64,000 bases of DNA from a virus (lineage: Duplodnaviria > Heunggongvirae > Uroviricota > Caudoviricetes), in IMG/VR virus record IMGVR_UViG_3300045988_156524, one strand, 5' to 3'. Shown here in pieces: positions 11,564 through 52,486 of this stretch; positions within the stretch are counted from its first letter, which is position 1, and every line of letters begins with the position of its first letter. Below the pieces are notes generated by a model, which worked only from the letters and a program-made list of their open reading frames with translations, searched no databases and was not told where the DNA came from. The position numbers were made by a program, and so were the translations under genes.

Positions 11564-11586
11564 TAACAAGTGATTTGCATTATCCT
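11564..11586 (+). promoter_or_regulatory. Candidate late promoter upstream of lyz (TAACAAGTGATT, 5 nt, TATCCT)
   Basis: One of five instances of a T.ACAA.TGACT-like box followed 5 nt later by a -10-like hexamer, each upstream of a late-type operon. Confidence 0.4.
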
Positions 11587-11673
11587 GTTCCTTCTAAAGG
11601 GATCGAGTCAGTCGGTATTGGCTGTGAATGAGTGTTTGTCCTGGAGCGTAAAAAATTCGCTTATGAGGTCTTT

Positions 11674-12231
11674 ATGAAGGGAAAAACAGCCGCAGGAGGC
11701 GGTGCAATTTGCGCTATCGCGGTGATGATTACCATCGTGATGGGTAATGGCAATGTGCGAACCAACCAGGCGGGGCTTGAGCTGATTGGTAACGCTGAAG
11801 GTTGCCGACGTGATCCATACATGTGCCCGGCGGGGGTATGGACTGACGGGATCGGTAATACACACGGGGTAACGCCGGGTGTGCGAAAAACCGACCAGCA
11901 AATCGCCGCTGATTGGGAAAAGAATATCCTGATCGCTGAACGCTGTATTAATCAGCACTTCCGGGGCAAAGACATGCCCGATAATGCCTTCAGTGCAATG
12001 ACAAGCGCGGCATTCAATATGGGATGCAATAGCTTACGGACCTACTACAGCAAAGCGCGAGGCATGCGAGTAGAAACGTCCATCCACAAGTGGGCGCAGA
12101 AAGGGGAATGGGTGAATATGTGTAACCATCTCCCTGATTTCGTGAACAGTAACGGCGTGCCCCTGCGAGGTTTAAAGATTCGCCGTGAAAAAGAACGCCA
12201 GCTTTGCCTGACGGGGCTTGTCAATGAATAA
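11674..12231 (+). CDS. lyz: SAR endolysin, T4-lysozyme-like (185 aa)
   Basis: N-terminal signal-anchor MKGKTAAGGGAICAIAVMITIVMG followed by a lysozyme catalytic region; ATG with GAGG RBS. Confidence 0.85.
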   Translation: MKGKTAAGGGAICAIAVMITIVMGNGNVRTNQAGLELIGNAEGCRRDPYMCPAGVWTDGIGNTHGVTPGVRKTDQQIAADWEKNILIAERCINQHFRGKDMPDNAFSAMTSAAFNMGCNSLRTYYSKARGMRVETSIHKWAQKGEWVNMCNHLPDFVNSNGVPLRGLKIRREKERQLCLTGLVNE

Positions 12232-12478
12232 ACTCCGGCAGCTCCGCCGACTTTCGACAATGAAGTTATCGCTGGCGGCGATAGTTTTTGACTCGATTTT
12301 CATGGCGGTATATGTGCTCAATGAGACGTGGCCACTGGAACCGCTATTGTATGCCGGGCTTCGGCTGTGCCTGACATTTTTGAGCATGGCTGCGAGATTG
12401 ATGCAGCAGAAAGAAACCGCTTCAGATTGTCCACGCCGCGCGGTGCGCAAATATATGGCACGCAGGCGAAGGCGATAA
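12224..12478 (+). CDS. Small membrane protein with poly-Arg C-terminus (84 aa), putative lysis accessory
   Basis: ATG overlaps lyz 3' end; two hydrophobic segments; followed by a terminator. Confidence 0.4.
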   Translation: MNKLRQLRRLSTMKLSLAAIVFDSIFMAVYVLNETWPLEPLLYAGLRLCLTFLSMAARLMQQKETASDCPRRAVRKYMARRRRR

Positions 12479-12488
12479 TAGTTAACGA

Positions 12489-12518
12489 GAACCCCGGCAG
12501 CTGCCGGGGTTATTTTTG
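12489..12518. terminator. Bidirectional rho-independent terminator
   Basis: CCCCGGCAG/CTGCCGGGG palindrome then TTATTTTT. Confidence 0.7.
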
Positions 12519-12522
12519 GTGG

Positions 12523-13542
12523 TTATTTAAACGGATTGATTGAATTATTAAACGTGATGATGCTTGTCTCACGCGGTGCCTGGACGTTAGCCGCTTGCGG
12601 AACCTCCTTAATTTTCTTGGTGACAGGCAAGTTGCGTGCGCCAACTTTGATCAGAGATTCGAAAAGTGTGGCAACGATTTTTGCATCACCAGGTTCTTTG
12701 AGGCGGAATGCGTCTTTTTGGGCGGCGGAGACGAAGATCGGGAGGTTATCCAGTTCGTCTTGCATTGCTGCCAGCACATCGTCGCGGATACCCGCTGTTT
12801 CCTCCAGCAAAGCGATTCGCGCTTCAGCATCTGCGATCTTGGCCATTGCTTCGAGGTGGCGGCCCTGGCTTTCGAGTAGTGCAGTTTCCAGTTCTGCCGT
12901 ACGCTCTGTCGCCTCCACCATCATTTCCAGTTCAGCCATTTTGCCGTAATGGGATATAACGGCCTGCACTGACTCGTCGGAGTACCCATGCGCCGCCAGG
13001 GACTCTGCCAGTAAAGATTTAGAATCCGCGCTTTCAAACATTCCGGCGCTGGCAGGATGATCCAGACTGATATAGTTCGGCGTTGTCACATAATCCACAC
13101 CATGGAAGCTGGTGGTTACAGCGATTTTCCCGGACTCACGCCCGCCAGTGGCCCAGCTCCAGCCACCAGCTCGGCTTTCGATCATCGCGGCGACAATTTT
13201 ACCCGGCTCTGTGTTAAGAATTTCCTGTGTATGGGTAACGATGCCGTTGTCGTCAACGGATATAGCTACTGTGCGGCAAGCTGGAACATTGTCGATAACG
13301 ACCGGGCGACCTTCCACCATGATCACGCTGGTTTCTGGTACTTCCAGTTTGCCGGTCAGCTGTCGGCGACCGTGACCGTAATAGCCGAAAAGCTCACCAA
13401 GGCGTAAACCTTCCTGAGTTTCCTTGCTTTCAAGCATGGTCTTTACCGCGCTTAATACATACTGTCGCCCGTTCTGGCGACCTTTTCTAGCATTACTATA
13501 GAGACAAAAGCGGTCAGTGACCGTTTTCAAAACATCAGTCAT
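12523..13542 (-). CDS. pro: Head maturation protease/scaffold-like protein (339 aa)
   Basis: ATG at 13542 overlaps portal stop; coiled-coil C-terminus; synteny (prt-pro). Confidence 0.5.
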
Positions 13543-50194: not shown

Positions 50195-50820
50195 CATGTA
50201 TTCTTCAGCCATTCTTTAAGAGTCATCTGCGGAATACCTCCCATTTTCCCGCATGAAACAACGTCAATCCGTTCACGCGCAGACTGGAATAACAAAGGCA
50301 GGTGACTTAGATTTTTTGGCGTGCCGCCGGAGTGAACGCGTGGTTCTTGTGTAGCGTCAACGCCCACCAGGGCGACATGTTTGAATCCGATATGGAAAGC
50401 CAGGTTCAGAGCACCATATGCACTATTGCCGCTGGCAATTTCATTCTCATCTTCGCAAAGTCCGAAATGTGCGGACCAGCGCCACGCCCACCACTCGGGA
50501 GAATTCGTATTTTTTGGCTCCATGCCACGTTCAGCCACACGACGGAAGCACAGAACGCCGTCTCTGACTTCACGTTCTTTAACATCGGGTAGTGCCATGC
50601 AATAACAAACACCACGGCGACGGCGGCCACGACCAACGCGCCGCATATTGTCTGGCGATGGATCAAGTGTGAAAAAATAAGAAGCGCGGTTCAGCCAGTC
50701 GATGGCCCCATTGACCGCTATAATCGGCACTCCGCGCGGCGCAACAAAGTTTGCGGCGCTTGGGCCACTGCCGACGATAATAACGCGATCACTGCCTCTA
50801 AATTTATTCTTGGGAAACAT
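50194..50820 (-). CDS. Maf/DUF115-like putative glycosyltransferase, paralog 2 (208 aa)
   Basis: [10 protein letters not shown] ... IIAVNGA motifs; overlaps upstream paralog by about 100 nt. Confidence 0.4.
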
Positions 50821-51380
50821 TGAATTGCACTGCTCCTACTTGCATTCAAAATATGTAAATCTGCGTGTTTTTTGCGGGTATCCAGGAACTGCTGTTGCCA
50901 TTTTGAAATAGACACCTGCGTTGGATTCCGTAGGGCTTGAGGGTGCGCGCCATGCCAATGAAGGCCGTTTTGCAGAGAACAGTCATAGCCGACTAATACC
51001 ACTACTTCAGCCCCTGATTCAGCAGCCAGACTGATAGCCTGCGCGCCGCTATTTACCCCTTCCGCCGGTCCACAATATCGCCTGTACTCCAACGAAAATG
51101 ATTTCGCCGCCGCCAGGTTGGCTGTCACTTTGCGGAATCTCCCTCCCGGTATGGTGGATCCGTATTGCTTCCACCATGACAAATCACCGGCGTATAAGGC
51201 ATAAATGTCATCGAACATCTGCCAGGAATTGTTAACCGCGATGATTGAACAGCCAGTTTTTTCTATAGCAGCACAGTCCTCACGAGTGAGTGACGGACCG
51301 CTACCGACACAAAAAACAGTCCTAGTCGCCCTGGGTGGTATGTTCATTCTCAGCTGCAAATTCAGCCTCCAGGCGAGCAT
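50718..51380 (-). CDS. Maf/DUF115-like putative glycosyltransferase, paralog 1 (220 aa)
   Basis: VFCVGSGPSL ... IIAVNNS motifs. Confidence 0.4.
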   Translation of the reverse strand: MLAWRLNLQLRMNIPPRATRTVFCVGSGPSLTREDCAAIEKTGCSIIAVNNSWQMFDDIYALYAGDLSWWKQYGSTIPGGRFRKVTANLAAAKSFSLEYRRYCGPAEGVNSGAQAISLAAESGAEVVVLVGYDCSLQNGLHWHGAHPQALRNPTQVSISKWQQQFLDTRKKHADLHILNASRSSAIQCFPRINLEAVIALLSSAVAQAPQTLLRRAECRL

Positions 51381-51543
51381 TCATTTCAGCGATTACAGGG
51401 TCCACTACAGCATCTGTTTCCTGTTCATTACGCGGCATGACCGATGCCAGCGACTCATAATTAACCTTGGATGACACGATTATTCTCCCGATGTTAAAGT
51501 GCACTACCACAAAGAGCGTAAATGCACTAATTAATTTATTATT

Positions 51544-52122
51544 TTAAGCAGCATACAACCACTTGTCGCCGTTCAATACATGCTCAATAGCCTCACCCTT
51601 TTTAAGGCTTATGTATTCCAGGATGGCGGTTATCGCTTGTTCTGCACCATACGCAAGAACGACGTAGTAACCTTCCTCTCTAAGCCTGCGCATCCAGGCG
51701 ATCTGCTCTTTCGTCGGGGCTTTACCATTTGGTTCTTTAAGCTCAATTCGCATGCCGTGATAAATACCGCATGCTTTATCGAGACTCATGTCCGGATAAC
51801 CTTTTTTCTGCCCTTCAGCCTTCATTTTCCCGGCGGTTGCTTTTGAACGTTTCCCTCCGTTAGGCGTTGCATGCAACAGCTCATAGATGTCAGGGTGCTT
51901 GCGTTCGAAGTAATCAAAAATGAAAACCTGCTCGAAGTGCTCGCAATTTCCGTCGCGCAGGTCTGGGTTCTTTGCAAGTGCTGCAAGTGCCTTCGCATGT
52001 GGAGAAACTTCTTTTACCGGCGCAAGCGATAAGAATGGATCCTTTTTGGTTTTTGGCCTGGACCGCCCCTTATTTCGACGCTCACTAAAAGCCTGAAACT
52101 CTTCCTCAGTAAAGCGCAACAT
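51544..52122 (-). CDS. VRR-NUC domain nuclease-like protein (192 aa)
   Basis: KKGYPDMSL...GMRIELKEPNG...Q pattern typical of VRR-NUC. Confidence 0.55.
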   Translation of the reverse strand: MLRFTEEEFQAFSERRNKGRSRPKTKKDPFLSLAPVKEVSPHAKALAALAKNPDLRDGNCEHFEQVFIFDYFERKHPDIYELLHATPNGGKRSKATAGKMKAEGQKKGYPDMSLDKACGIYHGMRIELKEPNGKAPTKEQIAWMRRLREEGYYVVLAYGAEQAITAILEYISLKKGEAIEHVLNGDKWLYAA

Positions 52123-52124
52123 AA

Positions 52125-52370
52125 TCAGTCAAATCCTGCCGGTCGCATGCCATATTTACGCTGTTTTGCGGCCTGCTCTTCCCTGTGCCATTGCGCACAT
52201 TCAGCGTCACAATAAATGCCTGATTCAATCGATTCATTGCAGTAACGACACTTCCCTGTAAATACCTGGCTCACGACCTGTGCCTGCTTTCTGATGTTAT
52301 CGATGGCCATGTCTTTGAGAGCTTCTAACTGATTCATGCTCAGCTCTGCATCATCAACACGTTCTGCCAA
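52125..52370 (-). CDS. TraR/DksA-type C4 zinc-finger protein (81 aa)
   Basis: CRYCNESIE...YCDAEC four-Cys motif. Confidence 0.55.
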   Translation of the reverse strand: MAERVDDAELSMNQLEALKDMAIDNIRKQAQVVSQVFTGKCRYCNESIESGIYCDAECAQWHREEQAAKQRKYGMRPAGFD

Positions 52371-52463
52371 TTTTGTTTCCTCGTGAAGAACCTACTTAAG
52401 GGCAGAATGATACATTTCACAATCAAAATTGCACTAATAATTTTATTTTATTGAGTTAAATAA

Positions 52464-52486
52464 TCAACAAATGACTAGCGGTAGAA
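52464..52486 (+). promoter_or_regulatory. Candidate late promoter for the baseplate operon (CAACAAATGACT, 5 nt, TAGAAT)
   Basis: Motif family member, 30 bp upstream of first ATG. Confidence 0.4.

Follow-up and report, generated by a model that had tools for sequence, protein, structure and literature searches.

The box that recurs in the window, the whole 64,000-nucleotide stretch of DNA analysed here, almost certainly marks, on the evidence of sequence, the Lpa-dependent late promoters of a P1-family phage-plasmid. The window belongs to such an element, with 98–99% identity to phage P1, and no sequence evidence contradicts this explanation. The finding is already known, since the box is the classic late-gene promoter signal of bacteriophage P1; existing knowledge does not change, and the P1 late transcription switch is re-found in one further P1-like phage-plasmid. 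The value for annotation lies in the full set of late promoters of the window, which is LPdar, LPlyz, LPpro, LPmat, LPpac, LP26 and LPpmgL, with LPhot lost. Side results which may be useful to P1 specialists are a possible promoter within gene 7, the asymmetry of the Lpa box and the box of phage D6.

Eleven late promoters have been described in P1, namely LPs (Ps), LPsit, LP23, LPlyz, LPpro, LPmat, LPdar, LP26, LPpmgL, LPhot and LPpac. Their common 9-bp inverted repeat is the binding site of the activator Lpa (gp10), the host protein SspA is co-activator, the late genes need Lpa and lpa is essential. Of the eleven, three (LPs, LPsit and LP23) fall outside the window. Six sites in the window, LPlyz, LPpro, LPmat, LPpac, LP26 and LPdar, are exact copies of late promoters annotated in the P1 record AF234172, which describes each late promoter as a "-22 region" plus a -10. 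Five of them had been reported in a first-pass annotation of this DNA as an activator-dependent late promoter class; these five are real, identical base for base to LPlyz, LPpro, LPmat, LPpac and LP26, and thus belong to the established P1 system. Their -10-like hexamers are as first written and four of the five positions are exact, while the fifth (52464-52486) is off by one base, since TAGAAT ends at 52487. That list was incomplete, having missed LPdar and the divergent LPpmgL.

LPdar (1914..1936, + strand) has the box AAGTTACTT at 1918-1926 and the -10 TACCAT at 1931-1936; lydA starts 28 nt downstream, at the head of the operon lydA-lydB-hdf-darA-ddrA-ddrB. LPlyz (11564..11586, +; TAACAAGTGATTTGCATTATCCT) is composed of the box AAGTGATTT at 11568-11576 and TATCCT at 11581-11586, and is located 87 nt upstream of lyz and close to the C1 operator Ossb (11524-11540). 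LPpro (15288..15310, -; TAACAAGTGACTAGTGTTAAATT), with the box AAGTGACTA at 15298-15306 and TAAATT at 15288-15293, has prt of the prt-pro operon 43 nt downstream. LPmat (26184..26206, -; TGACAAGTGACTTCAGTCAGAAT) carries the box AAGTGACTT at 26194-26202 and CAGAAT at 26184-26189; mat follows 19 nt downstream, and the C1 operator Omat (26235-26252) is an exact match to AF234172. LPpac (33187..33209, -; TGACATGTGACTTTCGTTACCCT) has the box ATGTGACTT at 33197-33205 and TACCCT at 33187-33192, and pacA of pacA-pacB follows 35 nt downstream. LP26 (52465..52487, +; CAACAAATGACTAGCGGTAGAAT) is made up of the box AAATGACTA at 52469-52477 and TAGAAT at 52482-52487, with gene 26 of the 26-25-7-24-6-5 operon 29 nt downstream; the C1 operator O26 at 52428-52444 again matches AF234172 exactly. 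The divergent LPpmgL (52459..52477, -) faces pmgL and uses the LP26 palindrome on the other strand (TAGTCATTT), in agreement with AF234172, where its -22 region is annotated as common to LP26. Its -10 is ATTATT in the window and AATATT in P1, one base being changed. We infer the promoter function of the window sites from their identity to P1.

At the heart of the canonical signal is a 9-bp palindrome, AAGTNACTT, centred near -22 and usually preceded by AC; a -10 hexamer of the TANNNT type begins 4 nt after its end, and a usable -35 is lacking. All seven window sites carry this inverted repeat with zero to two deviations, and six of the seven are identical in the -22 region annotated in P1. The hexamers TACCAT, TATCCT, TAAATT, CAGAAT, TACCCT and TAGAAT all stand at the 4-nt spacing, with the weaker ATTATT in LPpmgL. 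The conserved AC upstream of the palindrome makes the Lpa box asymmetric. The first definition of the box, T.ACAA.TGACT, had rightly included this AC, but the 12-mer as a whole sits 4 nt too far upstream relative to the canonical repeat. Nor is one mismatch in pac the only departure from it, as three of the five sites deviate: lyz (GATT), pac (ACAT) and 26 (C at position 1). The sites in front of lydA, lyz, prt, mat, pacA and gene 26 lie 19–87 nt upstream, are oriented towards the genes and are all intergenic, and the operons behind them serve lysis, head, packaging, maturation and baseplate.

The same sites could be read as ordinary sigma-70 promoters needing no activator, with the box as incidental upstream sequence. 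The -10 hexamers are indeed reasonable (3–5 of 6 positions matching TATAAT), LPpro has a TG at -15/-14, and LPmat contains a perfect TTGACA, separated from its -10 by 19 nt, and overlaps Pmat, a predicted sigma-70 promoter that is itself an exact match to AF234172. However, in at least six of the seven window sites the best match to TTGACA at 16–18 nt spacing is 0–3 of 6, the published need of the late genes for an essential lpa speaks against activator-free promoters, and across lineages it is the box that is conserved and not a -35. We consider this reading very improbable. The original statement that the sites have no -35 holds at 16–18 nt spacing and fails for the TTGACA of LPmat at 19 nt; because of this hexamer LPmat need not be strictly Lpa-dependent.

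The Lpa-dependent reading was also compared with chance recurrence of a short AT-rich motif without function, which has practically no probability left. Two copies of the exact 10-mer TCACTTGTTA are present where 0.07 would be expected, a figure first given as about 0.1. The 12-mer with up to one mismatch has 12 matches against 4.1 expected, a three-fold over-representation that none of 100 shuffles reaches. A search of coding against intergenic DNA, as first proposed, finds this motif commoner between genes, with seven of the twelve matches intergenic where about 10% is expected (10.4% of the window is intergenic; binomial P = 6e-5), pointing towards late operons. An independent matrix built solely from the P1 promoters LPs, LPsit and LP23, none of which is present in the window, recovers the sites: the six retained P1 promoters are all in the top 8 of about 128,000 positions, and the top four scores exceed the null maximum. 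LPdar is within the top 4 by independent matrices. What could be said for chance is that the bare 9-mer AAGTNACTT with up to one mismatch is not enriched in the window (26 against 22 expected) and that some look-alikes are clearly accidental. As the bare 9-mer is not enriched, specificity needs the flanking AC and a correctly spaced -10, and the 9-mer is not useful as a stand-alone detector. The sites themselves are exact copies of curated P1 promoters and are kept in diverged phages, and chance is already refuted by the statistics together with this conservation.

Among the look-alikes, a candidate at 42299-42321 (-) in a 6.7-kb insert is a GAGGA-N6-ATG, the ribosome-binding site and start of the open reading frame 41953-42315, within which the supposed -10 falls. 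A perfect 12-mer at 44670-44681 (-) is in coding DNA and has no correctly spaced -10. The near-matches at 33795, 37428 and 45730 were rejected for lack of a correctly spaced -10, location in coding DNA or lack of a downstream gene. LPhot was sought in the window and is absent, because the hot region (P1 86467-86875) is replaced there at 36805-37736.

The gene for the activator is present and intact in the same window. The Lpa-like gene at 33237..33689 (-), put forward as the candidate activator by the first-pass annotation, encodes a protein 100% identical over 150 amino acids to P1 Lpa, the "late promoter activating protein". It matches Pfam PF25716 (BPP1_LPA) with E = 3.1e-57 and 193 bits against a cutoff of 35, covering profile positions 1–130 of 131. 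Upstream are the sigma-70 promoter Plpa (33735-33762, -) and the C1 operator Olpa (33760-33776, -), both exact matches to AF234172, which place lpa under the predicted control of the prophage repressor C1. Olpa is also kept in diverged relatives. Upstream of Plpa, the 3' end of pdcB contains a box-like sequence that is conserved too, but as part of conserved coding DNA it is uninformative. For P1, both Lpa and host SspA are known to be needed for transcription to begin downstream of the -10. Following the literature, loss of the C1 repressor would let Plpa fire and Lpa be made; Lpa would bind the palindrome and act with the RNA-polymerase-associated SspA, and the two would let the sigma-70 holoenzyme start at promoters without a -35, so that all late operons would be switched on together.

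C1 operators near three of the sites (Ossb, Omat and O26), and the palindromic core, might suggest that the boxes bind a different regulator, C1 for example, or have a structural or recombination role, and are not promoter elements. The C1 operators, however, differ in sequence (type ATTGCTCTAATAAATTT) and are separate features, no stable hairpin can form from 4-bp arms that are only 1 nt apart, and the fixed 4-nt distance to the -10 and the gene-ward orientation fit a promoter element. This explanation can be given hardly any weight beside Lpa-dependent late promoters.

A further box plus -10 is found at 54170..54192 (+; caacAAGTGACTGgtgaTAACCT), inside codons 16–23 of gene 7. It is unannotated here, and it is identical in P1, where it is unannotated as well. 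With a matrix derived from sites of Cronobacter phage JK004 it ranks sixth in the whole P1 genome, and it outscores four annotated late promoters. Six lineages agree at every key base, which in the box are the AC, A1, A6 and C7 and in the -10 the T, A and final T, whereas the amino acids encoded there differ. In the most diverged lineage the gene 7 box has become the variant that the mat promoter of that lineage also carries, and D6 has a 7-24-6-5 block with its own promoter box. Our tentative proposal is that gene 7 of P1 and its relatives may contain a twelfth Lpa-dependent late promoter; if true, the tail and baseplate genes 24-6-5 further downstream would receive extra transcription from it. 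A search of viral contigs with gp7 gave only relatives of 98–100% identity, uninformative about constraint, and the P7 record, being without late promoter annotation, provides no check on this site.

Compared with P1, the window shares six promoter sequences, the architecture, the downstream operons, Lpa and the C1-controlled lpa promoter, and differs in the absence of LPhot and in the base change in the LPpmgL -10. Among diverged P1-like phage-plasmids, namely phage JK004 and elements of Salmonella, Klebsiella and Enterobacter, a ACAAGTGACTT-like box stands at the same spacing as in the window and precedes the orthologues of the operons 23, mat, R, 26, prt, pacA, lyz and pmgC. These relatives differ in tolerating C at position 8 of the 9-mer and in having lineage variants of the box, for example AAAGCACTT in the lineage L101. 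Both the position and the sequence of LPpac are kept downstream of Lpa homologues 67–77% identical. The mat promoter is not kept in every diverged lineage, and those with Lpa of 67–77% identity have no conserved box at the aligned position of LPmat.

The C-dependent late promoters of Mu, the Ogr/Delta-dependent promoters of P2/P4 and the gp55/gp33 promoters of T4 also have a -10 without a -35 and use a phage-encoded factor, and as in P1 they bring on the late genes jointly. Neither their proteins nor the sequences and positions of their sites are related to those of P1, and to our knowledge SspA plays no part in these systems.

Phage D6, with the Lpa homologue D6_4, is like P1 in that its box ends 3–4 nt before a -10-like hexamer and fronts lysis and morphogenesis genes, and in that the lpa homologue adjoins pacA. 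It differs in the box, which is AAATCACANACT (9 matches against 1.4 expected), and in Lpa, which is only 31% identical. A different box at the same position is what a cognate pair of activator and site would predict, and the D6 box and diverged D6 Lpa, set against the P1 pair, would offer a natural specificity swap with which to study how Lpa recognises DNA.

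The five promoter-like sites of this P1-family phage-plasmid are found at 11564-11586 (+, before lyz), 15288-15310 (-, prt-pro), 26184-26206 (-, mat), 33187-33209 (-, pacA-pacB) and 52465-52487 (+, baseplate operon), where the first-pass annotation had placed them, except that the last is shifted by one base and ends at 52487, not 52486. They are base-for-base the same as LPlyz, LPpro, LPmat, LPpac and LP26 of phage P1. The observation is real and its interpretation as a late promoter class with an Lpa-like activator is correct: the P1 record (AF234172) annotates the same sites, and the ORF at 33237-33689 (-) encodes a member of Pfam family PF25716 ("Late promoter-activating protein") with 100% identity to P1 Lpa. 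The sites are the textbook P1 late-promoter class, already known and annotated base for base in the reference record.

Over 5 kb surrounding the first two sites, identity to P1 and its relatives JL22, RCS47, SJ46 and P7 is 98-99%. Alignment to AF234172 shows the window to be the reverse complement of P1, from about 31.8 kb back to 1 and then from 94.8 kb back to 67.7 kb, with segments replaced or inserted at approximately 1-1322, 8904-10009, 22805-25467, 36805-37736, 39022-45789 and 60317-61414. At 22805-25467 two genes take the place of the P1 res/mod genes for EcoPI restriction-modification: one for a DDE transposase (23301-24509, +), the other for a protein with a RelA/SpoT domain (24488-25318, -), possibly a small alarmone synthetase or a toxin-type gene. 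The 6.7-kb insertion at 39022-45789, between pmgU-side and pmgT-side DNA, carries numerous small minus-strand ORFs, and parts of it match, in a mosaic pattern, other P1-like phages as well as accessory genes of lambdoid and Stx phages (Ea22-like, EaA).

The P1 record contains eleven "late promoter" features, each composed of a -10 and a "-22 region" of 9 bp. The palindrome AAGT-N-ACTT forms the canonical core and ends 4 nt before the hexamer; the 12-mer T.ACAA.TGACT reported earlier is this core displaced 4 nt upstream, and the hexamer does follow the 12-mer after 5 nt. One mismatch to the 12-mer is carried by three of the five sites, not by LPpac only. The reported lack of a -35 holds at all sites for spacers of 16-18 nt (best TTGACA match 0-3 of 6); the one exception is a perfect TTGACA of LPmat at a 19-nt spacer. 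Two members of the class had been overlooked: LPdar, an exact P1 copy at 1918-1936 (+) before lydA, and LPpmgL, which is the LP26 palindrome read on the other strand and has the -10 ATTATT in the window versus AATATT in P1. LPhot, searched for among the P1 features, is absent from the window, the replacement at 36805-37736 having removed this promoter together with hot, and LPs, LPsit and LP23 are located in the part of P1 outside the window. The unrelated DNA in place of hot, about 930 bp, holds a 118-aa ORF (36856-37212, +) abutting lxr and without a Pfam match, and a strong sigma-70-like TTGACA-N17-TATACA near 37220-37265 (-). Every promoter is oriented towards the first gene of its late operon, whose start codon is 19-87 nt away. 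The C1 repressor operators Ossb (11524-11540), Omat (26235-26252) and O26 (52428-52444) lie, as in P1, 25-45 nt upstream of three late promoters, which puts these regions under the control of the repressor as well as of Lpa.

With a 23-column matrix trained on LPs, LPsit and LP23 only, none of which is inside the window, the top eight of about 128,000 positions include LP26, LPpro, LPmat, LPdar, LPpac and LPlyz, and the top four score higher than anything in 20 random sequences. The 12-mer with at most one mismatch has 12 matches versus 4.1 expected, a number reached by none of 100 shuffles, and the exact 10-mer recurs beyond chance, as had been claimed (two copies versus 0.07 expected). Equal frequency of the motif in coding DNA, which the first-pass annotation had named as contrary to its reading, is not what is seen: in a window that is 89.6% coding by an approximate gene map, 7/12 matches are intergenic (P = 6e-5), as are all six genuine promoters. 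The candidate at 42299-42321 (-) was rejected as a late promoter, being a ribosome-binding site and start codon.

At 33735-33776, Plpa (the sigma-70 promoter of lpa) and Olpa (its C1 operator) are both identical to their P1 counterparts. In the passages of PMC1891329 that cite Hansen et al., Lpa is a sequence-specific DNA-binding activator which acts through the RNA-polymerase-associated host protein SspA, and SspA itself does not bind promoter DNA; expression of lpa is followed by transcription of lyz (PMC8198154). From this mechanism and the sequence identity of the element to P1 we infer that loss of C1 would activate Plpa, that Lpa would then be made, and that Lpa, SspA and sigma-70 RNA polymerase would act together at promoters with the box and -10. 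Two diverged relatives, with Lpa called at 139-140 aa, have ACG in place of the annotated lpa ATG at 33689 (-), and the Pfam match starts at residue 15; translation may in fact begin at Met11 (ATG at 33659) instead of Met1. A box-like TCACAAGTCACT at 33795-33806 (-), within the 3'-terminal part of pdcB and some 20 nt upstream of Olpa, is kept in relatives with Lpa 67-77% identical, which is uninformative since it lies in conserved coding DNA; it could be an autoregulatory site of Lpa, or nothing.

Lpa homologues occur in P1-like elements only, the lowest identity being about 67%. Where Lpa is 67-77% identical, in elements from Salmonella, Klebsiella and metagenomes, the spacer between lpa and pacA retains t-N-AC, [A/G][A/T]GT[G/A]ACTT, gcgt and TACCCT, with a terminator-like hairpin immediately before the box. 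In Cronobacter phage JK004 (gp7, the gene 7 product, 75% identical) seven matches to the P1 matrix exceed the null maximum, upstream of the 23, mat, R, 26, prt and pacA orthologues and a ppfA-like gene; weaker matches precede lyz and pmgC. The box and -10 immediately upstream of the ppfA-like gene are strong and P1-type (tgacAAATGACCTggcgGAAAAT, 23653-23675, -), whereas P1 has at this position only predicted sigma-70 promoters and no annotated late promoter, its counterpart scoring poorly (9.0). The dinucleotide AC stands immediately 5' of the palindrome in 8/11 P1 promoters and 9/9 JK004 sites, so that the conserved element is ACAAGTGACTT. In the window these two bases are at 1916-1917 (AG, in LPdar), 11566-11567, 15307-15308, 26203-26204, 33206-33207 and 52467-52468. 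As there is no corresponding GT 3' of the palindrome, the Lpa box is asymmetric and extends beyond the annotated "-22 region", the sole respect in which the wider 12-mer captures more than the 9-mer.

A further box and -10, caacAAGTGACTGgtgaTAACCT, lies at 54170-54192 (+) within codons 16-23 of gene 7; the same sequence is present in P1, without annotation in any record. Scored across all of P1 by a matrix derived from the JK004 sites, it comes sixth, ahead of LPsit, LPmat, LPlyz and LPdar. Six lineages, with gp7 identity as low as 59%, show no change in the AC, in box positions A1, A6 and C7, in the spacing of 4 nt or in the T, A and final T of the -10, whereas the peptide encoded by this stretch varies among them. 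Background nucleotide invariance in gene 7 amounts to 0.55 over all positions and to 0.29 at third codon positions. In the most diverged of the lineages (L101) the box is AAAGCACT, a variant also found in its mat promoter. This evidence is suggestive, though post hoc, and constraint on the protein could explain part of the conservation. We tentatively regard the site as a candidate for a functional internal late promoter, a possibility to which we give somewhat less than even weight; if true, P1-like elements may have in it a twelfth late promoter, one that feeds genes 24-6-5.

In phage D6 (MF356679) the Lpa homologue has only 31% identity to P1 Lpa, and the P1 box was not found at the late operons; one isolated perfect P1-type box is present at 71092-71114 (+), between genes 26 and mat. 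D6 carries instead the motif AAATCACANACT with a -10-like hexamer 3 nt later, in nine copies versus 1.4 expected (19215, 25230, 27736, 31520, 38124, 45500, 54133, 67402 and 72109), all nine directly upstream of late-type genes (orf16 hydrolase, prt, ddrB, lydA, R, pmgB, 23, 7 and mat). The 7-24-6-5 block, which in P1 belongs to the same operon as 26-25, is apart from these genes in D6 and has its own D6-type box, a point in favour of the gene 7 candidate. Judged from sequence, D6 is consistent with an activator and a site that changed together, the geometry of box and -10 remaining unchanged.
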